From a virus, in UHGV virus genome UHGV-0115279: a DNA stretch of 12,037 nt; one strand, written 5' to 3'. Below are positions 1 to 11,078 of this stretch, piece after piece. The notes under the pieces are model-generated. The model had not been told where the DNA came from. It searched no databases and was given only the letters and a program-made list of their open reading frames with translations. Position 1 is the stretch's first letter. The number at the start of each line of letters is the position of its first letter. The position numbers and the translations under genes are program-made.

Positions 1-113
1 GCACGTTAAATCATATCAGGCGTAATACCACAACCCTTAAGTTAGCGCTTATGGGAGAGATCCCCGCCACTCTTCGTGTGTCAGGTATCCTCAATGCACC
101 CTTTCCTCTCCAA

Positions 114-140
114 ATAAAAAAGCTCCCGAAGGGGCTTTAA
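114..140 (-). terminator. putative rho-independent terminator at the end of the late structural gene block
   Basis: GC stem-loop (+ strand agctccc-gaa-ggggct, 121..136) flanked by an A-run (116..120) and T-run. On the minus-strand RNA this reads AAAGCCCC-UUCG-GGGAGCUUU followed by UUUUUUAUUU, starting 17 nt past the stop of the 158..667 CDS. Confidence 0.5.
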
Positions 141-157
141 AATACAAGGGATGACTC

Positions 158-667
158 TTAATCCCACTCAATCCAGTTGTAGACGATACGAAGTGACGGG
201 CGCACAGCGGCAGTCACATCTTCGGTACTAAAGTCGATTGCATCACTGTAGATTTTGCAGTCCAACATTTCAATTGTTGTAGCAGCTTTTGTCACAGCGT
301 TAACCCCGGAAGATTTGGATTCAGGGGTAGCAGCCATCGTGATATCAACATAGTCCTTCGCCGCAATGCGATCCTTAATGAACTGAAGAATATCGCCTTC
401 GATAGTCTCCACGCACTGGACCTGGATTTCCCCAGAGTTTCGAATTGGTCCGTGCTGGTTGAACTTCACACCATTCGGACCATAGTCCTCCACATTCTCT
501 CGAGTCATTTCAGGGATTTGCGACGTGCGAACCAGTACGCTGATATCTTCATGGCCTGCAAAAGTGAGCTGGAATTCAGAAGATACCAGTCGTTCGCCTT
601 TGACCGCGTTGGCAGTATAGCGGCCCTTAATAAATTTACGGTTTCCCTTAGTGTTATTGTGCCCCAT
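158..667 (-). CDS. small virion structural protein, possibly tail tube-like (T4 gp19-like pattern)
   Basis: 169-aa ORF with ATG start at 667..665 and an AAGGA Shine-Dalgarno 7-8 nt upstream; start lies 12 nt after the stop of the upstream gene. Size and the C-terminal pattern (..RIVYNWIEWD) resemble myovirus tail tube proteins as I recall T4 gp19 (..LALDYWE). Function is inference only. Confidence 0.55.
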   Translation of the reverse strand: MGHNNTKGNRKFIKGRYTANAVKGERLVSSEFQLTFAGHEDISVLVRTSQIPEMTRENVEDYGPNGVKFNQHGPIRNSGEIQVQCVETIEGDILQFIKDRIAAKDYVDITMAATPESKSSGVNAVTKAATTIEMLDCKIYSDAIDFSTEDVTAAVRPSLRIVYNWIEWD

Positions 668-678
668 ATAAAATCCTT

Positions 679-1260
679 TTACTGGAACGCCCGAACAATA
701 TCGGAGCTGTTATATATCGAAGAACCGGTCAACTGGAGGTTGACGGTGTTTTTCAGGAAATATCCATTACTGTCCCTTGGCGCATCGAGATCAAAACTTA
801 AGTCCTGGATGGCGACATCGGTGATGTTGATCCGGCGACCAATGTTTAGCGTCACGCGCTCCGGGATTCGACCACCAACATTGGCCGCTTTTAGTTCCGG
901 GCTAATCATGGCTGTCAACGCGGCGATAGCGCCTGAAACTTCAATGAATGGATTGTTCAAAGCAATGAAAGTTACAGGCAGCGTGAACGTCGGCGGTGTT
1001 CCCCCTTCCCAAACCATTAAGCTGTTCCAACGGGTCACCGACGTTGTTTCAGTACCAACCTGCGCAAAACCACTGAAAGCACCAGCAACAGACCCCATGG
1101 ACATACCGGTAAACGGCGCTTCCCAATTCTGGGCCATGTTCATTGCTGCCCCCTGGCTGATATATCCGGTAACCTGATACTGAGAGTTCGTTAAAGTAAC
1201 TTTCAGATATGGCGATACACCGTCAGCCTGGCTGTAAACCCCATAAGCTATAGGAGCCAT
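679..1260 (-). CDS. hypothetical phage morphogenetic/structural protein
   Basis: 193-aa ORF with ATG start at 1260..1258 and protein-like composition, sitting in the late operon between the acidic protein gene and the tube-like gene. No recognisable motif. Confidence 0.5.
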   Translation of the reverse strand: MAPIAYGVYSQADGVSPYLKVTLTNSQYQVTGYISQGAAMNMAQNWEAPFTGMSMGSVAGAFSGFAQVGTETTSVTRWNSLMVWEGGTPPTFTLPVTFIALNNPFIEVSGAIAALTAMISPELKAANVGGRIPERVTLNIGRRINITDVAIQDLSFDLDAPRDSNGYFLKNTVNLQLTGSSIYNSSDIVRAFQ

Positions 1261-1295
1261 TCAAGTTAAAGGCCGGAGTTCTCCGGCCTCCTCCT
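1261..1295 (-). promoter_or_regulatory. intergenic stem-loop placing a distal AGGAGG next to the start codon (possible structured ribosome binding site)
   Basis: Minus-strand RNA after the stop of the 271-aa gene reads AGGAGGAGG - GGCCGGAG AA CUCCGGCC - UUUAACUUGA - AUG. A perfect 8-bp inverted repeat (+ strand 1271..1288) separates the only SD-like sequence from the ATG of the 193-aa gene. Confidence 0.35.
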
Positions 1296-2111
1296 TTAGC
1301 CAAGGCGCTTACGGCGCAGTTTCATTGACTTTTTGCGGGCAAGTTTTGCCGCGCCGGTCTGGGCTTTTCGACGCGCTTTTTTCAGCGCCGATTTTTGAGC
1401 CGCAGTCAGACGTTTTTTACGCAGGCGTTTACGGATGAGTTTGATCTCACCGTTACGAACAACCTTCTTAAATGATTCAGTCAGCATTTCATCAGAAGTG
1501 CCAGCAACAACAAACGCCGCTTCCAGTTCGTCGCGGTCGTCGCTATCTAAACCAGCGATAGAGGCACCAACATCAGCAGCTGCGTCGTCGTCTTCATCGT
1601 CAGCCAGTGCTTCGATCAGGTCATCATCTACACCGCATGCTGCGAGGAAGTCAGCAACATTTGCCCATGCTTCGTTATAGGCATCGTCCTGTTCTTCTGT
1701 AACTTCGGAGTCGTCGTCATCAGAGATACCAGCGATAGCCTGAACGAAACCATCAAGGGAGTCGAAAGTCAGATCACCGCTATCAGCCCAGGCGAAAACG
1801 GCGTCGGCCGCATCACTCAACGCATTCTGCATAGCACTTCGATTTGCAGCTTCCAGAATCATCTGGTGCGCCTGTTCGACGGTCCATTCTTTACCGTCTT
1901 TCCCTTCCAGGATTTGCTCAGGAGCCGTGGCAGATGGAGCGTTATCGTTAGTCTGTGCCGCCGGTTCCGGATTATTATTAATAACCGGATCTGTTGTCGG
2001 TTCGGCGCTTGCTCGGGCAGACTCCATCAACTGCACAGGATCAGAGTTCAAAGCGAAACGAGACAGTCCATTCCCCAAAAATGCCCCGGATTGAAAAAAG
2101 TTTTTGCTCAT
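1296..2111 (-). CDS. acidic protein with extremely basic C-terminal tail (phage virion-associated or DNA-binding protein, function unknown)
   Basis: 271-aa ORF with ATG at 2111..2109 and an AAGGAAA Shine-Dalgarno 5 nt upstream. N-terminal ~200 aa is strongly D/E-rich (e.g. DDDDSEVTEEQDD, ADDEDDDAAAD); the last ~55 aa is K/R-rich (KRLRKKRLTAAQKSALKKARRKAQ..RRKRLG). Position corresponds to the gene after the sheath gene in the P1 late operon as I recall the map. Confidence 0.6.
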   Translation of the reverse strand: MSKNFFQSGAFLGNGLSRFALNSDPVQLMESARASAEPTTDPVINNNPEPAAQTNDNAPSATAPEQILEGKDGKEWTVEQAHQMILEAANRSAMQNALSDAADAVFAWADSGDLTFDSLDGFVQAIAGISDDDDSEVTEEQDDAYNEAWANVADFLAACGVDDDLIEALADDEDDDAAADVGASIAGLDSDDRDELEAAFVVAGTSDEMLTESFKKVVRNGEIKLIRKRLRKKRLTAAQKSALKKARRKAQTGAAKLARKKSMKLRRKRLG

Positions 2112-2120
2112 TGTATTTCC

Positions 2121-3710
2121 TTACTTAATAAGCAGCGGTACGCCCTGGATACGACGGGCTACGCCAGTCGGGCAGCAGGCCCAGACTACTTCCCATTTAT
2201 CGAATTCCGCCTGCGTAACTTTCAGCACATACGGTTCTGTACCGTCAGCATCAGGATCACGAGGAGCCACCAGAGCGCCGGAGGCGACAAAGCGATCCAA
2301 AAGTTTGGTCATCCCTTTAGTCAGGCCAGACTCAGTAATGCCGTCCGGGTTATGCTTCATCTGTCGGGCTAACTGGACAAAGAAACGGCTGATTGCGTTC
2401 ATCAGGGATGGGACGTGCTGGAAATGCAGATAGTTGTCCTGCGTGCAGCAAGTTAAAGCATCATCGATGATCATCTGGCCCGAAGTACCTACAGATACTT
2501 TATTGAGTCGGCCCTTGACCATAGCTTCTTCGTCCGGGGTGTCTTCAGGATACAGCGGCTGAAGTGATGCACGAGCAATGACGGCACGTTCTTCACCAGC
2601 CGGTGAGTAATGCCAACCGCCGACATCGGAGTTTTTCTTGACGCCACGAGCTATCGCCGCATACGCCGCGCCAGACAGACCGAAGATCACGCGGGATTGG
2701 GTCCATTTGTCTTTGCAGGAGAACGGGAAATGATAGACAGCACAGCTTACATAATCGGTACCAAGTAAACCGGTATCTTCAACAGCAGAGATCGCTTCCG
2801 TGTACGTCAATGTCGGTTTGACATCAAAGAAGCCATCAATCAGGCGATCAGAACAGATATTACCTAACGCAGTGATCGCCGCATTGTCATAGCAACCCAG
2901 GCCGAGAACAGCGGTGTACATGTACGGCGCATTGTTCAGCACTTTCACCGCACGCAGGTAAGCAGCAGTGGAAATGTTCGACTGATCGCCGTTGGTACCG
3001 CCAGTGAACGCCAGCGATTTTTTATTTGTTACTTTCGCCGTCGAAATCAGCTCTTCATTAACAACCGCGCGCAGATATTTAGAACGGGCTTCCAGAGCCG
3101 TAGGCAGATAACACAAGCGGCCCATGTCATCTTTCGCTTCTTCCGCCAAAGACACAGTGTGTGTCTCCAGGGTCGTTACCACACCGAGCGAAGTCGTCTG
3201 GGTCAGTTTTAAGAGGAAGCGTTCATTACCCGCGCTGTCCGCTGTTGCCGTTTCGATGGTTAACTCACGGGTAGGAGAAATACACGGATCACCATCATCA
3301 ACGTAGATAGCAAAGGCTTCGCCGCTATCAAGTTCAATTTCAGAACCGTATGGCAACGCACTGTAAGCCGGTTCGCCTGATTCATCGAACATAATAATCG
3401 GGAACTTCGCATCATCCGGAACAGCACGGACAACATAACCAGACGTTTGCTGAATAGCTTCGTACACATGGCGAATTGGTTCGAACTGTGAGCCGGAGGA
3501 CGGCTTCAGCGGTTCGCCGAGAACATCTTCGTAATTGGACTCAGTAACCGCAAGAACAGTAAACGGCTTGCCACGCGCAAATACGCCAATACCAGCCCAC
3601 AAGCTGCTATTTAATACAACACCGGTAGATAACGTCGCATCGGCATTGATCGGGCTAACAGCGACACCGGATGCATTACCTAATGACTGTTGAATTGAAT
3701 ATTGAGACAT
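2121..3710 (-). CDS. putative contractile tail sheath protein
   Basis: 529-aa ORF (~58 kDa) with ATG at 3710..3708 and an AGGGAAA SD. It lies immediately downstream of the major head gene, matching the P1 late operon order (head gene 23, sheath gene 22) as I recall it. Assignment is by size and synteny, not a verified motif. Confidence 0.55.
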   Translation of the reverse strand: MSQYSIQQSLGNASGVAVSPINADATLSTGVVLNSSLWAGIGVFARGKPFTVLAVTESNYEDVLGEPLKPSSGSQFEPIRHVYEAIQQTSGYVVRAVPDDAKFPIIMFDESGEPAYSALPYGSEIELDSGEAFAIYVDDGDPCISPTRELTIETATADSAGNERFLLKLTQTTSLGVVTTLETHTVSLAEEAKDDMGRLCYLPTALEARSKYLRAVVNEELISTAKVTNKKSLAFTGGTNGDQSNISTAAYLRAVKVLNNAPYMYTAVLGLGCYDNAAITALGNICSDRLIDGFFDVKPTLTYTEAISAVEDTGLLGTDYVSCAVYHFPFSCKDKWTQSRVIFGLSGAAYAAIARGVKKNSDVGGWHYSPAGEERAVIARASLQPLYPEDTPDEEAMVKGRLNKVSVGTSGQMIIDDALTCCTQDNYLHFQHVPSLMNAISRFFVQLARQMKHNPDGITESGLTKGMTKLLDRFVASGALVAPRDPDADGTEPYVLKVTQAEFDKWEVVWACCPTGVARRIQGVPLLIK

Positions 3711-3725
3711 AACTTTCCCTGTTAT

Positions 3726-3743
3726 GCGCCCCGCACGGGGCGC
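3726..3743 (-). promoter_or_regulatory. strong GC stem-loop in the head-sheath intergenic region
   Basis: Perfect inverted repeat gcgccccg/cggggcgc (7-bp GC stem with a 4-nt loop) between the head gene stop (3770) and the sheath gene start (3710). No U-tract follows, so it is not a classical intrinsic terminator; it may affect mRNA stability or processing. Confidence 0.4.
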
Positions 3744-3769
3744 TATGTTAAACGGAGAACTTCCCCTGA

Positions 3770-4951
3770 TTACTCAGAGTCACCGGCATCAATCGTGTCG
3801 CCGCTTATAAAGTTAAGCCCGCCTTTTTTGGCCATTGTCAGCGTTACACGAGTGAAGTAATCAGCGCCGTTGCGTGGGTGCATATCGTTGATAGCCGAAC
3901 CCCACAGCGTGGTACGGTTGACCAGCGCCGGAGTGGTCGGATGCTGGAACGGGATGGCCGGGACAGCATCACCAGTCACGAAGCCTGCTTTACCCGGATT
4001 TTCATCACGGACGTAGCACAGCACATCCATCGAGCTGAACTGAATGTTCTCTGTCGTTAAGTTCTTACAAATACCAGCAGGTACTTCGTACACTTTCACG
4101 TTACCGAACAGGGTACCGATGTAGTGAACATACGGAGTCTGGATATAGTCTTCGGCTGACTGGAAGAAATCCTTCGGCAACTGTTTGAAGAAAGATGCTG
4201 CATCAGCACCAGCAAACATCCCCATCGCACCAGAAGATTTAACGCGCTCAATAATGTCGCGATATACAGTCTGGAATTTGCCACGAATGATGGTTGCCCA
4301 TACATCAAAGGACTGGTTAACCGGCAGAGCGATGTCAAAGGTGTCGGTCGCAAGAGTACGCCAGATCATGATGCGAAGACGCAGCATATCCTGTTCATGA
4401 GACAGGTATTCCTTCAGGGTGCGGAACTGTAGGGAACCCAGGTCCAGACCAAATTCACGCTGTGCTTCATACGCCGCCTGTACCGTGTGCTCAGCCGCGA
4501 TAACGAACTGACTTGGGAACAGGGTGTATTTCTTCATTTCGTGGTTGATCAGCGGGATCAGCTCAGGAGCGGCTTCAATATTGATTTCCGTCTCAATTGC
4601 GATCTCAGTGCCTTTATCCGGCGCTTTGGAGAACGACAGGGCAATCTGACCAATGTTGTAGTTCAGAGAGCAGGTAACAGTGATTTGCTCACCAGCAGCA
4701 TTAGTAAACGAGTGAAGTAGGCTGCCGGAACCGTTATCAACAACAGACTTAATACGGTTAACGTAGATGTTAGTGCGACCTTTTCGGATTGGTACATTCT
4801 GGCCTTCGAAGTCTTCCATCTTGAAGGTTGCGGTTTTGCTGGTGCCATCGGAGCTTGCCAGCAGCATAAGAACCAAAAGATGAACCTGCCACGTTAAAGA
4901 CTTCATAGATGTCGGACTGGTCACGCGTAACCGGAATGAAGGTACACGCAT
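3770..4951 (-). CDS. major head (capsid) protein, C-terminal ~365 codons; the upstream part appears to continue in another frame
   Basis: 393-aa ORF with no convincing RBS at its annotated ATG (4951) and a non-protein-like N-terminal ~30 aa, while the sequence from ..SSDGTSKTATFKMEDFEGQ onward looks like genuine protein. It overlaps the 4770..5432 ORF by 182 nt in a different frame. Confidence 0.6.
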   Translation of the reverse strand: MRVPSFRLRVTSPTSMKSLTWQVHLLVLMLLASSDGTSKTATFKMEDFEGQNVPIRKGRTNIYVNRIKSVVDNGSGSLLHSFTNAAGEQITVTCSLNYNIGQIALSFSKAPDKGTEIAIETEINIEAAPELIPLINHEMKKYTLFPSQFVIAAEHTVQAAYEAQREFGLDLGSLQFRTLKEYLSHEQDMLRLRIMIWRTLATDTFDIALPVNQSFDVWATIIRGKFQTVYRDIIERVKSSGAMGMFAGADAASFFKQLPKDFFQSAEDYIQTPYVHYIGTLFGNVKVYEVPAGICKNLTTENIQFSSMDVLCYVRDENPGKAGFVTGDAVPAIPFQHPTTPALVNRTTLWGSAINDMHPRNGADYFTRVTLTMAKKGGLNFISGDTIDAGDSE

Positions 4952-5432
4952 CAGCGGTAGCTGCCCCCAACTGAACAGGCAGGATCATCGCGAGGAATAA
5001 AGGCAGACGCATAACACCGTCAGAAACGCTCATCATCTCTGCTGCGACGGATTCCAGCATCGCTTTATTAGTGGCATCCATGCTATTGCGGGTGGACTCA
5101 ATCAGGCAGTTTTCCAGCGTCTGGTGGCAGGAGGCCAGAATTTCCGGACGCGGCATAGATTTATGTGCTGCGGCGTAGTCAGCCAGTGCACTTGCCCACG
5201 CTGTAGCGATTTGAGCGGTGGCATTATCAGAGATACCCGCAAAAACCGGGTCTTTACGTGCAGCTTCAAGGATAGATGCGGCACGCGCGGCATCATCTTT
5301 AATGAATTGGTTATCAGTACCGAACTGCGCAGTGCTTGCCCAGCCAAGCACAGCTTTAGAGCGTTTTGCGATATCTGCAATACGATTCTGGTATTCGCGT
5401 AAGTTACTCAATTTACTCTTCCTTAAACACAA
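4770..5432 (-). CDS. major head (capsid) protein, N-terminal portion (Ala-rich helical delta/scaffold-like domain), frame-shifted relative to 3770..4951
   Basis: The 220-aa ORF in the track begins at a TTG. The likely true start is the in-frame TTG at 5411..5409, preceded by AAGGAAG with 6-nt spacing. The N-terminal part is Ala-rich and protein-like; the last ~28 aa (KLRWHQQNRNLQDGRLRRPECTNPKRSH) look like out-of-frame read-through. Confidence 0.55.
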   Translation of the reverse strand: MCLRKSKLSNLREYQNRIADIAKRSKAVLGWASTAQFGTDNQFIKDDAARAASILEAARKDPVFAGISDNATAQIATAWASALADYAAAHKSMPRPEILASCHQTLENCLIESTRNSMDATNKAMLESVAAEMMSVSDGVMRLPLFLAMILPVQLGAATADACTFIPVTRDQSDIYEVFNVAGSSFGSYAAGKLRWHQQNRNLQDGRLRRPECTNPKRSH

Positions 5433-5454
5433 GGCACTTGTGTGAATCCCTTTT

Positions 5455-5495
5455 CGGAAGAGATTTTATTGAAAGTCACTTGTTGACTTTCTCGT
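5455..5495 (-). promoter_or_regulatory. putative phage late promoter for the head-sheath operon (palindromic activator site plus -10)
   Basis: A 21-bp palindrome with 8-bp arms, GAAAGTCA-ACAAG-TGACTTTC (5471..5491), is followed 2 nt downstream on the minus strand by TAAAAT (5468..5463). This puts the palindrome centre near -25, with no -35 hexamer, about 45 nt upstream of the head gene start. The architecture matches what I recall of P1 late promoters (Lpa-dependent). Confidence 0.4.
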
Positions 5496-5547
5496 GACAA
5501 GCAATTTTTTTATTTTTTTCGGGAGTAGGGGAGGAAGGTAAAATCCA

Positions 5548-5634
5548 AGGTGAAATCGTGGCGATTTCACCTTGAAATTTTAGAGGGATTTACTTTAAAA
5601 ACAGTAGGTTAATAGTGAAATTTGAATGGCGAAA
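5548..5634 (-). other. parS: parS partition site (plasmid centromere) with heptamer box A and hexamer box B motifs flanking an AT-rich IHF-type spacer
   Basis: Minus-strand reading directly after the parB stop: TTTAAACTTTCGCCATTCAAATTTCACTATTAACCTACTGTTTTTAAAGTAAATCCCTCTAAAATTTCAAGGTGAAATCGCCACGATTTCAC. It contains TCGCCA (box B) twice and ATTTCAC/GTGAAAT (box A) in both orientations, matching the phage P1 parS layout as I recall it. Confidence 0.85.
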
Positions 5635-5636
5635 GT

Positions 5637-6638
5637 TTAAGGCTTCGGCTTTTTATCGAGGCTCTTTCTAAGGATATGCCCAATCATCCTGTCGAGTTCT
5701 TCCTGTAGCTCTTTTGAAAGTCGATTAAACTCATAAGAAAATGCACGGCCTTTCACGCGCTTCCTTGCAAAGCGATCCTTGTCCTCAAATTTCCATAATT
5801 CAGTAACTACGGACTTATCTTTAGAACCTTTATCCGTGAGTAGTGAGGCTTCCTTTGTTATCAAGCGCAGGATTTTATTTTTAACTTCATCTTCGGCCAT
5901 TTCTTCAATGGATAAGATGTCGTTTATTTCCGGGGATATGTTTTGAATAAGCTGATCAAACTCTAAATTCTTGTTCCCCATTTCGTCGCCAACAGCACAA
6001 AGCGTTTTGTAGTCCGAAAAGGTTAATTCCGACTGCACAGGGAAAAGGGCGACTAATTCTTCCGGAGCACTCGCTGCCTGGAGAGCACGCGTGACCTTCG
6101 CCTGAGACAGCCCTTCTTTGGCTGCAATATCCTTCTGACTCATCCCATCATTTTTCATTCGCATCAAACGCAGACCTATTTCTCGAATGCTGTGCTGCAA
6201 TGCTGTCTGAACGTCTTTCGCTAAATTTTGCGCTTCCTGAACGCTGATCTCCTGGTCCGTGACTAAAACCCGCAACCCTACGTTCTCTAAGATGGCAGAA
6301 GCTCGACGCCGGGAACCATCCAAAATTTCAATTTTCCCTGTAGCCCGTCTAACACCTATTGCAGGGTAAAATTGCTGATGCTTAATAGTGCTTCGGATAC
6401 TTTTTAATGATTTTGGCGTAAGAGATGTCTGGTCACGCCCGTTGTTATGCTGATCAACAAAGGTATCGCTTTCTACCTGGTTCGGAGGTATTACCTCTTC
6501 AATAAATGTGGCCTGGCGACCAGTTGATAACTTGAATACCTGCTCGACTCGATCGCCAGAGGCTGAAGAACTATCAAATCCGCTTAATATTGAAGGATTA
6601 AGGGTTCGCCCAATTGTTGGTCTGTTTTTCTTTGACAT
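5637..6638 (-). CDS. parB: ParB partition protein (centromere-binding, P1 type)
   Basis: 333-aa ORF with ATG at 6638..6636 and a GAGGAG SD that overlaps the parA stop codon. N-terminus MSKKNRPTIGRTLNPSILSGFD.. and the arginine patch ..ILDGSRRRASAIL.. are typical of ParB, and it sits between parA and parS. Length and sequence match P1 ParB as far as I can recall. Confidence 0.9.
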   Translation of the reverse strand: MSKKNRPTIGRTLNPSILSGFDSSSASGDRVEQVFKLSTGRQATFIEEVIPPNQVESDTFVDQHNNGRDQTSLTPKSLKSIRSTIKHQQFYPAIGVRRATGKIEILDGSRRRASAILENVGLRVLVTDQEISVQEAQNLAKDVQTALQHSIREIGLRLMRMKNDGMSQKDIAAKEGLSQAKVTRALQAASAPEELVALFPVQSELTFSDYKTLCAVGDEMGNKNLEFDQLIQNISPEINDILSIEEMAEDEVKNKILRLITKEASLLTDKGSKDKSVVTELWKFEDKDRFARKRVKGRAFSYEFNRLSKELQEELDRMIGHILRKSLDKKPKP

Positions 6639-6654
6639 GGGGGTTTCTTACTCC

Positions 6655-7851
6655 TCAGTTAGATCTGATAAATTCAATACGGTCAAAAACTGCTTTAGCA
6701 AAATCTTCCGCAGCAATTCGCGCGTTCTTCAATGCATCAGCACTACCAACATACGTTGCCGGGTTAGCTGAAATAACAGTGTCAAAAGACTCGCCGCAGC
6801 GTTCAAAACCGTCAAGGCGAGGGAGGACAACATCAAGCATATCCCCACCGAACACTTCTTTAGCCAGGCTATGGCAATACTTATGGTCTGCCTTGTTACT
6901 CAACTTGGACATAAAACCAATGTTAGTTGCAAGCTGACACTCGCAGCCTTCATCCGAAATGAGTTTCACCAACTCAGGAAGGCGGGCAACGTATTTAAGC
7001 GATGAGTGGAAATCAACCGTTGCAGGCGGCAGAGGTGTAAACAGTATATTGGCCGAGGCCAAAGCATTTTTCAGGAAGGCGTCAAGGTGAGGACCACTAT
7101 CAACGAGGATAAAGTCATAATCGCTCTTCAGCTTATCAATCACATTTTCTTTCAGGACTGCATGGATGTTCTGACCCGGTAGATGCTCATTGCACAGCTC
7201 TCTCCAATCGGATGCAATAAAGGCATCGTCAATCGACGCAGGCATAACGTCAACCCCAGGTACAACAGAAGGAACAATAAACTCCTCTAACAGCTCTTCA
7301 CGGCTTACATTCTGCAACATAGCCTGTGCAGATGTTGCGTTTACGATACCAATAGAGTGTTTATGGCTTAAAAACATCGTTGCTGAAGATTGCGGATCAA
7401 GGTCAATAACCAGAATCCTTAAATCTTCCATCAGAAGATGAGGATGAGCACGCATTGCATGCGCCAGAGAAACCGTCGATACAGTTTTTGACACACCGCC
7501 TTTAAGATTGGAGATGAAAATCACATACGCTTCGCTGTAGCGATCCCGGTATTTTGGCACTCCGCGATGTTCATATATGTCAATGATGTTCTGAATTGAC
7601 ATCGCATATTTCATTGAAGAGCCAGCAGGGCGTTTATCGAAAACATAACCCTTTTCTTCCATTTCACTTACGGCATAGTCAACGTTCGCACGAGTCAGTA
7701 GAGGCAATTTTGCCAGTGCCGCTTTCGCATAGACCTGGTAAAACTCGTTCGCGTGTAGCTCATCCTTTTGCAACTGTACTTGTTCAGTCAGAACATTGAG
7801 CATTCTATTTGCTCTTTGAGCAACCTTGTGAAGCTGGCTGGAATCACTCAT
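6655..7851 (-). CDS. parA: ParA partition ATPase (type Ia, with N-terminal autoregulatory DNA-binding extension)
   Basis: 398-aa ORF with ATG at 7851..7849 and an AAGGA SD. It has the deviant Walker A motif NLKGGVSKTVSTV and a ~100-aa N-terminal extension, and lies immediately upstream of parB. Length and sequence match P1 ParA as I recall it. Confidence 0.9.
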   Translation of the reverse strand: MSDSSQLHKVAQRANRMLNVLTEQVQLQKDELHANEFYQVYAKAALAKLPLLTRANVDYAVSEMEEKGYVFDKRPAGSSMKYAMSIQNIIDIYEHRGVPKYRDRYSEAYVIFISNLKGGVSKTVSTVSLAHAMRAHPHLLMEDLRILVIDLDPQSSATMFLSHKHSIGIVNATSAQAMLQNVSREELLEEFIVPSVVPGVDVMPASIDDAFIASDWRELCNEHLPGQNIHAVLKENVIDKLKSDYDFILVDSGPHLDAFLKNALASANILFTPLPPATVDFHSSLKYVARLPELVKLISDEGCECQLATNIGFMSKLSNKADHKYCHSLAKEVFGGDMLDVVLPRLDGFERCGESFDTVISANPATYVGSADALKNARIAAEDFAKAVFDRIEFIRSN

Positions 7852-7990
7852 CGAAAGCCATCCTTTATGCTGTATTTTTGAATTTAATTAAAAATGCTGC
7901 ATAAAATAATAATGTATGCGTAGATGCTTGTACATAGCATTCTCTGCATGTTTGGTTCATTTTGCACGATTGAGAGTTACAAGGAGGGCA
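7852..7990 (-). promoter_or_regulatory. par operon promoter/operator region
   Basis: AT-rich 140-bp leader between the upstream terminator and the parA ATG, containing imperfect palindromes (e.g. ATGCTTGTACATAGCAT at 7924..7940; tgcata..tatgcg at 7879..7899). These are plausible sites for ParA autorepression; exact -35/-10 hexamers not assigned. Confidence 0.5.
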
Positions 7991-8014
7991 CAAAAAAGCC
8001 CCGTTCAGGGGCAT
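7991..8014 (-). terminator. rho-independent terminator of the 269-aa gene, insulating the par promoter
   Basis: Minus-strand RNA has GCCCC-UGAAC-GGGGC followed by UUUUUUGUG, beginning 6 nt after the TAA stop of the 8020..8829 CDS. Confidence 0.7.
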
Positions 8015-8019
8015 CAGTG

Positions 8020-8829
8020 TTATTTGCTAAGAGCAGCGAATAATCGTTCGAAATCGATAGTATCTATAGCACGCGTAAGCGCCGGAAGTTCAGCCTCAAA
8101 GTACCCGTGTCGATCGTAAAAGAAGGGACCGAAGAGCGAGGCATGTTGGATTCTACTTCGCCCCAGCCCGGACACACAGTTAAGCCCATTACCGGCTAAA
8201 AGGCTAAAAAACTTCTCTGGATTATCGTGGTAAAGCTGGGAATCAATGGTGGCGGTTAACTCTTCCATAGGGAAGCACACCCGCCCTGTATCCCAGGGAT
8301 ATTTAGTCCGAAGCATAAACATTGCTTTCAGCAATTCACATTGAGCGCGGATCGCGTCCGGTTCATAGCCAGATATGGAGACATAAGCCACGTCCCTCAT
8401 TCCTGCGTCATCTTTGAAAGTCACGATAGAAGTAACATCCAGCTCTTTTTCGAAAGAGCAAGCAGCATCTACTGGACGCTGAAGTAAATCATTCGACTTA
8501 ATGCGCTCGAGAATCCCTCCCCACATATCATTTAGATATTCGATATGAGCCAAAACCTTATCAAGACACTCTCGTGTAAACCATTCAGTATGCCCGCCAC
8601 CGACGCTTTTCTCCCACGGCGCATTCCAGGGGAAAAAGGTTGCGTGTAAAGCCCGCTCAAGATTAACCATTGCCAAACGCGTACCACGATAGACCCGTGA
8701 AAGCGCAAAATCGGGACTCACTTGTAGCCCTTTAAACCGTGCCAATGGACCACATGAAATGCCGATTTTAAAAGTATCTCCGTTCTCTGGCACCAGAACG
8801 TAGAGGTAGTGTTGTTTCTCTTCTTGCAT
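8020..8829 (-). CDS. GIY-YIG / T5orf172-like domain protein with uncharacterised C-terminal domain (candidate accessory, defence or anti-defence gene)
   Basis: 269-aa ORF with ATG at 8829..8827, weak SD, TAA stop and its own intrinsic terminator. The N-terminal ~90 aa (HYLYVLVPENGDTFKIGIS...R...LERALHATFF...GGGHTEWF) follows the Y-x-Y-[VI]-L ... KIG-x-[ST] ... R ... E..LH ... TEWF pattern of the GIY-YIG-related T5orf172 (MUG113-like) family. Residues ~100-269 have no motif I recognise. Confidence 0.75.
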   Translation of the reverse strand: MQEEKQHYLYVLVPENGDTFKIGISCGPLARFKGLQVSPDFALSRVYRGTRLAMVNLERALHATFFPWNAPWEKSVGGGHTEWFTRECLDKVLAHIEYLNDMWGGILERIKSNDLLQRPVDAACSFEKELDVTSIVTFKDDAGMRDVAYVSISGYEPDAIRAQCELLKAMFMLRTKYPWDTGRVCFPMEELTATIDSQLYHDNPEKFFSLLAGNGLNCVSGLGRSRIQHASLFGPFFYDRHGYFEAELPALTRAIDTIDFERLFAALSK

Positions 8830-8863
8830 ATCAATACCACTGCTTGATGAGAACCGCGCAAAT

Positions 8864-9120
8864 GTTGACTATGCGCGAAGGTTAATGTGAATAGTTGACT
8901 ATGCGCGATGTGACTACAGTCAAAAGTTGACTGTAGTCGATTTAACTCCACCAAAGATCGACTATGTAAGATATTGTCGGGAGAAACGTTGACTATACGC
9001 GATGAAATGCCCCTAAAAGCCATCTCAATAGCGACTTGCAGAATATTGACGCCAGCAAAAATCCACCAGCGTCAACGAATGTCGCCTATAGTCAACTTCT
9101 CGCTATCGCATATAGTCAAT
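8864..9120. repeat. incA: incA-like iteron array downstream of repA (copy-number control locus)
   Basis: Multiple copies of a ~14-bp core GTTGACTATGCGCG: direct at 8864..8877, 8894..8907 and 8988..9001; inverted at 9083..9096 and 9107..9120; degenerate copies at 8958..8966 and about 9046..9076. A head-to-head pair forms a perfect 12-bp inverted repeat (8912..8923 / 8927..8938). The last copy abuts the repA stop codon. Confidence 0.8.
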
Positions 9121-9121
9121 A

Positions 9122-10006
9122 TTATGGATTGCGCTTATGGATCTGGAAGCCGATTTTCCTGCCGTTTTTTATCTCTGAAAATTTAAGATATTCAATAGCT
9201 TCCAAATCTTTCATGGCTTTTCTGATAACGCTATTTTGCACGCTAACGGATGATTTGAGATTAAGCCTCGCTCTAAGGCGCTCAATGCTGACAGGTGCCG
9301 GGTTGGCGGGTAGAGCCTCAAAGAATGTATACAGTACCTTGGCCGTCTCTTTGCGCCCTAGTTTATCCAGCATCTTCAGCTTCAGGATTCGCTTATAGTC
9401 AACATAGTAAAGTTCAGATAGCTGTTTCTGCGGCTGGATCTCGATAACATCAAGCTCGGTATTCAGGCTGCTATATGCCAACAAGTTGACGTTAATGTTA
9501 TTGAGATGACCTTTTGCCGCCGGGAAGCGGAATTTGACAACTGTCTGCTGAATGCGTGTCAGAGAGTCATCAATACTTTTACGGAACGCCTTTGAAAGGC
9601 GCTTACGTGGATAGCCGCATCGATCGGCAAACTCGGAGAATGGCAGGGTGATTATGCCGTCATCATCAGGTGCGTAGTCAAACAACGCGGAGGTTATGCC
9701 CACCCACACCTTAAAATCAGTATCCATATCCAGGCGTGGACCATGAATTTCAATTCCCTCATAGCCTTCCTGCTCAACAATTTTGAGGCTTGATAGTTCT
9801 TCAGTTGCGTTCGTTGTGTTTGTTGTAACTGACGATCCGCGACGTAGCGCCACATTGGTAGATTTTAAGGTTGGCACAAACACACCTAAGCGCAACAAAG
9901 CGATGGGTTGTATAGTGCTGTTGTTATTGGGCTTCAGGCTGTGGATTTCTCCTGTATTTCCTGCAACTTCTTCAACGCTAAGGAAGCCTTTACTTTCTTC
10001 CGGCAT
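9122..10006 (-). CDS. repA: RepA iteron-binding replication initiator (RepA/RepE family)
   Basis: ORF 9122..10042 in the track starts at a TTG; the most plausible start is the ATG at 10006..10004 (MPEESKGF..), with GGAG 8-12 nt upstream, giving 295 aa. Blocks IQPIALLRLGVFVP, IHGPRLDMDTDFKVWVGI, FSEFADRCGYPRKRL and LYTFFEALPANPAPVSIERLRARL resemble the P1 RepA / F RepE initiator family, and the gene is flanked by iteron arrays on both sides. Confidence 0.85.
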   Translation of the reverse strand: MPEESKGFLSVEEVAGNTGEIHSLKPNNNSTIQPIALLRLGVFVPTLKSTNVALRRGSSVTTNTTNATEELSSLKIVEQEGYEGIEIHGPRLDMDTDFKVWVGITSALFDYAPDDDGIITLPFSEFADRCGYPRKRLSKAFRKSIDDSLTRIQQTVVKFRFPAAKGHLNNINVNLLAYSSLNTELDVIEIQPQKQLSELYYVDYKRILKLKMLDKLGRKETAKVLYTFFEALPANPAPVSIERLRARLNLKSSVSVQNSVIRKAMKDLEAIEYLKFSEIKNGRKIGFQIHKRNP

Positions 10007-10050
10007 CACGGTTTCTCCATGTGTGGCGCGGCCTGACGTCAATTTGGATG

Positions 10051-10300
10051 GCTGTTATCAACAGCTGTGAATATTCAGACTCTAAAATCGCTTACAGTCA
10101 ATGTTTCTGTCGCGTATAGTCAACAATAAATCGCGTGCAGTCAACAATAAATCGTGCACAGTCAACATAAAATCGCGTATAGTCAATGTTGATCCCATTT
10201 CAGGCCAGTAATGACGCGGCTTACAGCGATCCGGGATCTTCTTTGGATCTTCCTAGGTTCTCTTTAGGATCTGTTTATTGGATCTATGCTGTGGATAAGT
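10051..10300. other. oriR: oriR-like plasmid origin: DnaA boxes, clustered GATC sites and five iterons
   Basis: Five iterons at 21-bp spacing (about 10089, 10111, 10132, 10153, 10174; unit CGCGTATAGTCAACA + AT-rich spacer). Six GATC sites within 95 bp (10191, 10228, 10235, 10246, 10268, 10281; four as GGATCT). A perfect DnaA box TGTGGATAA sits at 10290..10298 and an 8/9 DnaA box TTATCAACA at 10055..10063, inside the palindrome GCTGTT-ATC-AACAGC (10051..10065). Located directly upstream of repA. Confidence 0.8.
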
Positions 10301-10304
10301 TGAA

Positions 10305-10330
10305 TAAACCGGCCAACAAAGCCGGTTGGA
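10305..10330 (-). terminator. putative terminator between the small-gene block and oriR
   Basis: Minus-strand RNA has AACCGGC-UUUGUUG-GCCGGUU followed by UAUUCAACUU, 12 nt after the stop of the 10342..10734 CDS. The U-tract is only moderate. Confidence 0.4.
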
Positions 10331-10341
10331 AGGAAGTCATA

Positions 10342-10734
10342 TTATTCTACGCTTTCGATAAGAAGACCATGTTCATAACATTTAAGCTCATCGCCTTCGT
10401 ACAGGAATTGGTATCCAATACCACCATTTTCATGGACATTAGGGAATAACTCATAACTCACTGAAGAGCAAATCACACCAATGCAGCGATCAACGCCTTC
10501 TCGTTCTTCAGTGCTGAAAAAATCCTCTTCGGTAAGGACATGAGTACATTGCTCATCAGCATAGGTCGGAAATACATGCTCGATGCAATCCGGGTGTTTT
10601 AAACCAAGCTGATCGGCAAGCTCGAAAGCATGACGGTATTGTTCAGATCCTGGCTTGCCAACAGTGATGTGCTCAATTTTGTAGATTGAAGTTGCTTTGT
10701 TGATAGTTTGCTTTACTGTTACTTTATCAGACAT
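10342..10734 (-). CDS. hypothetical Cys/His-containing small protein
   Basis: 130-aa ORF with ATG at 10734..10732 and an AAGGGA SD. Contains spaced Cys/His residues (HPDC, EQCTH, CIGVIC, KCYEH) that could bind metal. Position corresponds to the first gene after oriR in the P1 map (upfA) as I recall it. Confidence 0.6.
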   Translation of the reverse strand: MSDKVTVKQTINKATSIYKIEHITVGKPGSEQYRHAFELADQLGLKHPDCIEHVFPTYADEQCTHVLTEEDFFSTEEREGVDRCIGVICSSVSYELFPNVHENGGIGYQFLYEGDELKCYEHGLLIESVE

Positions 10735-10745
10735 AAAAATCCCTT

Positions 10746-11078
10746 TTAGTTACCTCTGATAGCGCGGTTGTAATCATTAACGTTGCGATTCTTCCTGTTA
10801 ATCCCCATCAGCATCGTTTCTGTATCGAGGATATACGCTGGCAGATCATCAAAATATTCACTGCTAAACTCTGGCATCCTGCACATAAATGCACTTTTGG
10901 GGGCAGGGTGGTTAACCTTTGTCGGCGTCGGCGTTAAATTCGCTGATCGACTGCCGGAGCAACCGCTGAGTGTCAGCAGGAATGCGCTGGCGAACATTAC
11001 CCGCCGCAACCAGTTGTTTCTGAACTTCAGCTTTTCGTTCCATTTGCCTGTCAGCATATTTGGCTTGTTCTGATTCAT
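10746..11078 (-). CDS. lipoprotein precursor; o-spanin-like (or exclusion lipoprotein)
   Basis: 110-aa ORF with ATG at 11078..11076 and an AGGAAG SD 8 nt upstream. It has a lipobox L-S-G-C preceded by the hydrophobic stretch VMFASAFLLT and K/R residues, and a Pro/Thr-rich mature region (TPTPTKVNHPAPK) with one Cys. Its start lies inside the 3' part of the upstream membrane-protein gene in another frame (167-nt overlap). The signal peptide is unusually long from this ATG, so the true start may be an internal Met. Confidence 0.6.
   Translation of the reverse strand: MNQNKPNMLTGKWNEKLKFRNNWLRRVMFASAFLLTLSGCSGSRSANLTPTPTKVNHPAPKSAFMCRMPEFSSEYFDDLPAYILDTETMLMGINRKNRNVNDYNRAIRGN

Follow-up and report, generated by a model that had tools for sequence, protein, structure and literature searches.

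The origins of replication of P1 and P7 (oriR, IncY) are the closest described counterparts of the locus analysed here. The P7 and P1 records annotate five incC iterons, followed by Dam methylation sites 1–5 and then by a DnaA site, and the P1 origin is described as flanked by an array of DnaA boxes on either side. P1 depends on methylated DNA for its replication (Abeles & Austin 1987), methylation acts at two levels of control at oriR (Abeles et al. 1993), and one DnaA box suffices (Abeles et al. 1990). SeqA binds both Escherichia coli oriC and the P1 origin core, and was identified and purified through its binding to the latter (Brendler et al. 1995). Dam control is likewise described for REPI/RepFIB (Gammie & Crosa 1991). 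RepFIB (REPI of pColV-K30, P307 and F), IncFIB(K) and RepHI2 encode initiators of the same RepA family as p0111 (45–49% identity) and carry the same conserved core upstream of rep, but differ from p0111 in their iterons and incompatibility groups. As for p0111 itself, the JL22 paper reports that IncY repA was replaced by repA' and one unknown gene, and p0111 is typed apart from IncY. A search of the literature for experiments on the p0111 origin found none, the JL22 and Venturini papers describing the repA swap only; so far, the origin has been used purely as a typing marker. P1-like phage-plasmids of the p0111 type are common carriers of mcr-1 and ESBLs in E. coli and Salmonella. In these plasmids p0111 is the only plasmid replicon recognized by typing, and as the sole replicon it must be functional. 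Based on the comparisons presented below, the segment 10055–10298 is very probably the oriR of a P1-like phage-plasmid with a p0111 replicon, its part at 10195–10298 representing a host-factor core homologous to that of P1.

The window, i.e. the whole 12,037-bp stretch of DNA subjected to analysis, contains a replicon region (8700–10400) that matches many plasmids of ~80–150 kb from E. coli, Klebsiella and Salmonella with 100% identity, and the P1-like phages phi456, SJ46, JL22 and RCS47 with 98–100%. Encoded on the minus strand are parB (5637–6638) and parA (6655–7851), both 99–100% identical to P1, a 269-aa T5orf172/GIY-YIG-like gene identified by domain match (8020–8829, ‘gp57’ of JL22), repA (9122–10006) and upfA (10342–10734, from open reading frame and annotation). 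In a sliding comparison the identity to P1 amounts to 97–100% from 5650 to ~7950. From 10340 onwards it is again 96–100% to P7 (through ~11540), and mostly likewise to P1 (to ~11390). The intervening stretch, ~7960–10300, is foreign to P1 and corresponds to the p0111 replicon. Judged by these alignments, the window is best described as a P1-like phage-plasmid in which the IncY replicon has been replaced by a p0111 module at ~7960–10300. Because the identity to P1 ends at ~7960, the T5orf172 gene belongs to the foreign module. The presence of such a gene between the replicon and parA sets the p0111 module apart from P1, and, being nuclease-like and located at the module edge, it might be connected with module movement.

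The p0111-type initiator RepA (294 aa, Pfam Rep3_N and Rep3_C) starts at the ATG at 10006, immediately preceded by a GGAG Shine–Dalgarno sequence, and phage RCS47 is annotated with the same start. As in P1/P7, the initiator has the Rep_3 fold and its gene is transcribed away from the origin. Still, RepA shares 42% identity with P1 RepA over 272 aa (E = 9e-71), as compared to the >~90% by which an IncY member is recognized, and its iterons are unrelated to those of P1 (see below). The next-nearest Rep proteins, those of IncFIB and IncFIB(K), show 44–49% identity to p0111 RepA. A PLSDB search with the repA DNA returned ~400 records, 396 of 400 with at least 95% nucleotide identity. No close non-P1 relatives of p0111 repA were found among these 400 matches, and the sole divergent match among those listed was a partial one (70.6%) on a Mixta plasmid. 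The public records are not uniform in their treatment of this replicon: the RCS47 record (FO818745.1) labels repA ‘experimentally demonstrated’ with P1 citations despite the 42% identity to P1 RepA, MOB-suite types the p0111 replicon as IncHI1B (p0111 being the name used in the literature), and the origin is unannotated in the full feature tables of three p0111-type records (RCS47, SJ46-like and pMCR-like).

GATC occurs at 10191, 10228, 10235, 10246, 10268 and 10281, i.e. six times within 94 bp (10191–10284). The initial annotation had reported six sites in 95 bp with about 0.4 expected by chance, and the count reproduces this with an expectation of 0.43 per 95 bp. The corresponding Poisson probability of at least six sites is 5.8e-6 per 95-bp span. 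Over the whole window, GATC is not above chance (54 copies vs. a shuffle mean of 48.6), and all remaining 95-bp spans hold three copies at most. In a first-order Markov simulation of 2000 whole windows, at least six GATC per 95 bp were reached in one (0.05%); the window-wide P for the cluster is ~5e-4. Four of the sites (10235, 10246, 10268 and 10281) were indeed found in the GGATCT context that had been ascribed to them, the remaining two reading TGATCC and CGATCC. In fact, every coordinate and count given in the initial annotation agreed with the recount.

The sites from 10228 onwards are part of a plus-strand array of heptamers (GGATCT) at 10228–10287, a presumed DNA-unwinding region delimited from the GATC sites, the slot alignment with P1/P7 and the AT skew. 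It comprises six slots, at 10228, 10235, 10246, 10257, 10268 and 10281, of which five contain GATC and the one at 10257 is degenerate (GGTTCT). The AT skew of the array is −0.52 to −0.55, reflecting a T-rich top strand, and with a GC content of 37–45% its A+T-richness is only moderate. The heptamer GATCs are spaced by 7, 11, 22 and 13 bp, the last three intervals corresponding to one or two helical turns. In composition and layout, as far as can be judged from the sequence, the array resembles a DUE. In the DUE of E. coli oriC, GATC-initiated T-rich repeats (13-mers, GATCTnTTnTTTT) similarly lie beside a DnaA box, R1. Conversely, oriC is devoid of plasmid initiator and iterons and is built on 13-mers as opposed to a 7-mer in an 11-bp register; its likeness to the p0111 core would be one of analogy only. 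A plus-strand ATG reading frame of 87 aa (10186–10449), probably spurious, extends across the origin core and, in antisense, into upfA. An Rfam scan of 8700–10800 gave zero matches.

The 104-bp core at 10195–10298 can be aligned with the annotated oriR core of P1/P7 over 104–105 bp, with an identity of ~74%. In this alignment, P1 sites 1, 2 and 3 correspond to 10228, 10235 and 10246, site 4 to the degenerate GGTTCT at ~10257 and site 5 to 10281, and the GGACCT slot of P1/P7 is occupied by the GGATCT at 10268. Hence, both origins possess six heptamer slots, five of which are methylatable, and it is the identity of the decayed slot that differs. The first DnaA box of P1/P7 aligns with 10290–10298 and the second with a decayed sequence, GTTGAATAA, from which 7 nt are deleted. 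A further difference from P1 is the extra GATC of p0111 (10191), located in the spacer at the iteron boundary. An organization like that of P1 oriR but with different iterons had been proposed in the initial annotation, and the proposal is supported, as the core is alignable to Dam sites 1–5 and the DnaA site of P1/P7. On the strength of this alignment, the likeness of the GATC/DnaA segment to P1 oriR is one of homology, beyond analogy. Pairwise alignments of the core gave 74% identity with P1/P7, 75% with IncHI2, 76% with IncFIB(K), 74% with E. coli IncFIB and 80% with rep_cluster_488 (SSU5-like); the pairwise values are used throughout, a seven-sequence MAFFT alignment having misaligned P1/P7 by 3 nt.

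Like P1/P7 oriR, the p0111 origin has DnaA boxes on its outer and on its repA side. The outer box is situated at 10290–10298 on the minus strand, where it forms a perfect match (TTATCCACA; the plus strand reads TGTGGATAA) and corresponds in the alignment to the DnaA protein_bind feature annotated in P1/P7. It adjoins the GATC cluster as originally described and is the sole perfect DnaA box in the window, with ~0.09 expected. The repA-proximal box, TTATCAACA, is an 8/9 match at 10055–10063 on the plus strand. It was located where it had been reported, between repA and the iteron array, so that the iterons separate the two boxes. As ~2.6 boxes of this quality are expected per window, a lone 8/9 match at 10055 is not significant. 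A second copy of TTATCAACA, at 4734–4742, far from the origin and inside a 393-aa reading frame (3770–4951), is consistent with this chance expectation. The box at 10055–10063 is invariant in six p0111 variants, the flanking bases of which vary. Across the origin family, the position of the rep-side DnaA box is conserved: boxes with at most one mismatch are found beyond the iteron array in 30 of 45 loci, mostly 165–191 bp from the first invariant heptamer (GGGATCT), with the box of the window at −178, and their density is 3.5 per kb in the rep-side region vs. 0.31 per kb in the background.

The box at 10055 was further said to be embedded in a 6-3-6 palindrome, and GCTGTT-ATC-AACAGC can be read directly at 10051–10065. 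The palindrome is probably incidental, since its arms change without compensation among the p0111 variants and the box itself is invariant, a reading based on three haplotypes. The possibility that it serves as a RepA operator was considered and rejected on the same uncompensated variation (three haplotypes only) and because TCAAC is all it has in common with the iteron. At the opposite end of the origin, many family cores in a 49-sequence alignment carry a tandem GTGGATAA-GTGGATAA. Here, P1/P7 and many relatives have a second box, TGTGGATAA, where p0111 has the decayed GTTGAATAA at 10299–10307, with 7 nt deleted, leaving p0111 with one intact outer box. The decayed sequence is identical in every p0111 variant examined.

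Repeat-family analysis and sequence reading identified five origin (incC-like) iterons, TCGYnnnnAGTCAAY, on the plus strand at 10088–10187. They start at 10088, 10110, 10131, 10152 and 10173, and their spacing of 22-21-21-21 bp, close to two turns of the helix, is shared with P1/P7. A phasing of 22/23-21-21-21 bp is in fact common to P1 and many family members, the iteron sequences themselves being unrelated; thus, the p0111 iteron TCGCGTATAGTCAAC bears no relation to the CAGCACACAT-type repeat of P1. With at most one mismatch, TAGTCAAC was matched 20 times vs. 8.4 expected, a number reached in 0 of 200 shuffles. An iteron-like sequence within the repA coding sequence, TCGCTTATAGTCAAC at 9389–9403, is identical to the origin iterons at 14 of 15 positions. 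The last iteron is separated from the heptamers by a G+C-rich spacer of ~40 bp (10188–10227; GC 0.525 vs. 0.33–0.45 on both sides), the equivalent distance in P1, from iteron 14 to Dam site 1, being 39 bp. In the 49-sequence family alignment this spacer is almost free of indels yet variable in sequence. A promoter scan of the minus strand between 9950 and 10400 found none for repA (PrepA), and TTGACT within the iterons, inspected by eye for PrepA, lacked a convincing −10 element.

Downstream of repA, and again in common with P1/P7, lies an incA-like cluster of control iterons (8864–9120), which was delineated from direct and inverted repeat families and from the P1/P7 incA layout. Five copies share a first orientation (8864–8878, 8894–8908, 8926–8940, 8956–8970 and 8988–9002, at a spacing of 30–32 bp) and two are oriented as the origin iterons (9082–9096 and 9106–9120), which gives 5+2 copies in p0111 as compared to nine in P1. 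The copy at 8956–8970 is degenerate in that GTTGAC is changed to GATCGAC, hence a Dam site is present in an incA-like iteron.

The constraint acting on the individual elements was assessed in six p0111-type origins that differ from the window by up to ~5%. Neither the six GATCs nor the two DnaA boxes nor the iteron cores vary in this set, and substitutions in the core are confined to the G+C spacer (10203–10210) and to positions between the heptamers. In P1, the heptamers are reportedly critical, and the spacer is said to be free in sequence and fixed in length; the variant pattern of p0111 matches this picture.

The variant data also bear on the provenance of the core, together with the position of the right-hand module junction. 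Sliding identity to P7/P1 over 10190–10289 is 70–74%, and near-identity to the P1/P7 backbone resumes at a hairpin resembling a terminator, CCGGCnnnnnnGCCGG with a T-run behind it, which the promoter/terminator scan placed on the minus strand at 10309–10329, at the 3′ end of upfA. With the core at ~74% and the backbone at 96–100% identity to P1/P7, the core therefore arrived with the p0111 module. The comparison places the right-hand junction at ~10290–10310, in or just past the DnaA boxes. Alternatively, the GATC/DnaA segment could be a relic of the P1 (IncY) oriR, left behind after the swap of repA and iterons and unused by the new RepA, as might be read from a single 82% megablast match to P7 that runs from the core into the backbone. 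We consider this highly improbable. Besides the gap between 70–74% identity in the core and 96–100% in the adjoining backbone, the core is no nearer to P1 than to IncHI2, IncFIB or rep_cluster_488, the last being closest at 80%. Moreover, its distance to the new iterons (~40 bp) is in the register of the family, its functional motifs are all invariant across the p0111 variants, and the identity step at ~10290–10310 falls outside the heptamers. The same megablast match had prompted a related model, a mosaic junction at which the P1 core was kept and foreign iterons were imported. It was rejected in view of the family-level identity of the core (~74%) and the step at ~10290–10310. Arrival of the core as part of the p0111 module is thus the reading retained here. 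The decayed DnaA box at 10299–10307 coincides with the step from ~74% to >96% identity to P1/P7 and therefore may represent a crossover scar.

A BLAST search with 8830–10345 returned 2678 PLSDB records, and the sampled non-p0111 rows matched the core segment only. The core also adjoins the rep genes of RepHI2, IncFIB(K), IncFIB and rep_cluster_488, with 74–80% identity. For a census, the motif GGGATCT-N24-44-TTAYT-N0-1-GGATC-N-A-N6-GGAWAW was searched in one genome per GTDB species, a pattern that would miss GATC-less homologous cores in Dam-lacking clades. This yielded 48 loci, almost all from Enterobacterales (Pantoea, Erwinia, Rahnella, Enterobacter, Klebsiella, Kluyvera, Xenorhabdus, Providencia and others). 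A RepA homologue is encoded on the opposite strand, 186–873 bp to the iteron side, for 47 of the 51 motif copies. These homologues show 36–57% identity, apart from one that is identical. Of the other copies, two have no flank sequence, and the remaining two, in a Leptospirales MAG and in a MAG without classification, are not accompanied by rep; the two rep-less copies fit the ~1.4 chance matches estimated. In IMG/VR, the motif was present in at least 120 contigs, with a RepA-family gene in the available flank in 114 of 120 (36 P1-type, 23 p0111-type and 55 others). The repeats adjoining the cores differ wholly between members and include CAGCACACAT, AGCTTAT, ACAGTGG and CAGTAGAC, among others. 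Family cores hold between three and seven GATCs; the IncHI2 core, for instance, has three, fewer than p0111, and in RepHI2-type loci rep and the core lie farther apart (873 bp). Given this range of GATC numbers, members may vary in how strongly they depend on Dam, in a way that is unreadable from sequence.

The linkage to RepA-family genes is also relevant to explanations of the GATC cluster that do not involve an origin, i.e. chance or base composition, or some further Dam-dependent role, for example in packaging (a pac-like site) or as a Dam-regulated upfA promoter. The P1 pac site uses GATC clusters, and the plus-strand 87-aa reading frame at 10186–10449 overlaps the region. Chance is opposed by the window-wide P of ~5e-4, and a promoter function by the location of the cluster downstream of the 3′ end and terminator of upfA, not upstream. 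Taken together with the slot-by-slot homology to an annotated origin core, the RepA-family gene in 47 of 51 genomic occurrences and the zero Rfam family matches, this leaves a non-origin explanation with a next to negligible probability, and assignment of the cluster to an origin core is preferred.

In the alignment of 49 cores, the heptamers are conserved also in slots that the census pattern does not force, and the fifth slot reads GGATC in at least 90%. Three GATCs as well as TTAYT and GGAWAW are forced by the pattern, and the conservation of these columns is partly by construction; the BLAST-derived alignment is unbiased in this respect. Even decayed slots are still heptamer-like (GGTTCT, GGAACT and GGACCT), and the G preceding and the T following GATC are conserved. 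Something must therefore read the sequence beyond GATC.

By extension from P1 and RepFIB, we infer each of the protein–DNA interactions at the p0111 origin, along with its dependence on Dam, SeqA and DnaA. In the proposed sequence of events, RepA monomers would fill the five phased iterons, and DnaA would bind the outer box at 10290–10298, the box at 10055–10063 serving as an auxiliary or alternative site. The heptamer array, which is T-rich and moderately A+T-rich, would then be opened by RepA and DnaA together, and DnaB would be loaded there, with the ~40-bp G+C-rich spacer fixing the distance of the array from the iterons. Efficient firing would need the heptamer GATCs to be fully methylated by Dam. 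Once the origin has fired, these sites, now hemimethylated, would be bound cooperatively by SeqA, so that immediate re-initiation is blocked. Copy number would be set by the incA-like cluster downstream of repA, via RepA titration and handcuffing. SeqA favours GATC sites that lie on a single face of the helix, an arrangement provided by the spacing of 11/22/13 bp.

The same core could also operate with a different emphasis, GATC methylation being mainly positive (through easier melting or factor binding) and SeqA playing a minor part, as it commonly does in plasmids whose replication is timed at random within the cell cycle. The family-wide conservation of the GATC-flanking G and T and of the non-GATC heptamers (GGTTCT, GGAACT, GGACCT) would be in keeping with this reading, as would the statement by Demarre & Chattoraj that cell-cycle-specific methylation control is untypical of plasmids and the phrase ‘two levels of control’ in the title of Abeles et al. 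1993. On the other hand, SeqA was purified as a protein that binds the core of the P1 origin (Brendler et al. 1995), and intervals of 11/22/13 bp suit cooperative SeqA binding on one face of the helix. Mainly positive methylation is regarded as possible yet rather unlikely.

The recurrence of the same ~100-bp core beside RepAs of only 36–57% identity suggests that, at the level of sequence and across Enterobacterales, these origins are far more tightly constrained in their host-factor half than in the half specific to the plasmid. A tentative extension, to which we attach a good deal of doubt, is that the core acts as a host-interface cassette, constant beside freely diverging initiators and iterons, and, being conserved, at the same time as a recombination hinge at which entire replicon modules could be exchanged. 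The right crossover from IncY to p0111 would then fall in TTATTGGATCTAT..GTGGATAA (~10276–10307), the part of the core with the highest conservation, with the decayed box as its scar. If so, cores should be interchangeable between family replicons provided that the spacer length is kept, and the reader of the full heptamer GGATCT would be a host factor, not Rep.

The type of origin to which p0111 belongs is well studied and very widespread, and p0111 adds an uncharacterised member to it, not a new kind of element; its description extends decades-old P1 biology and overturns nothing. Identity as a P1-type oriR predicts dependence on Dam, SeqA and DnaA as well as a minimal replicon of ~8830–10340. 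As iterons determine incompatibility, p0111 should be compatible with IncY P1.

Two observations from the searches concern the genomic setting of the core in other hosts. In three contigs of Rahnella spp., two complete core motifs on one strand are separated by ~400 bp and adjoin a single RepA-family gene, an arrangement that looks like a duplicated origin core. In addition, an IncHI2-type core, at 873 bp from a RepHI2-like gene, is present in the 5.2-Mb ‘chromosome’ of Enterobacter hormaechei CP169086.1; either integration of an IncHI2 plasmid or a join made in assembly could account for it.
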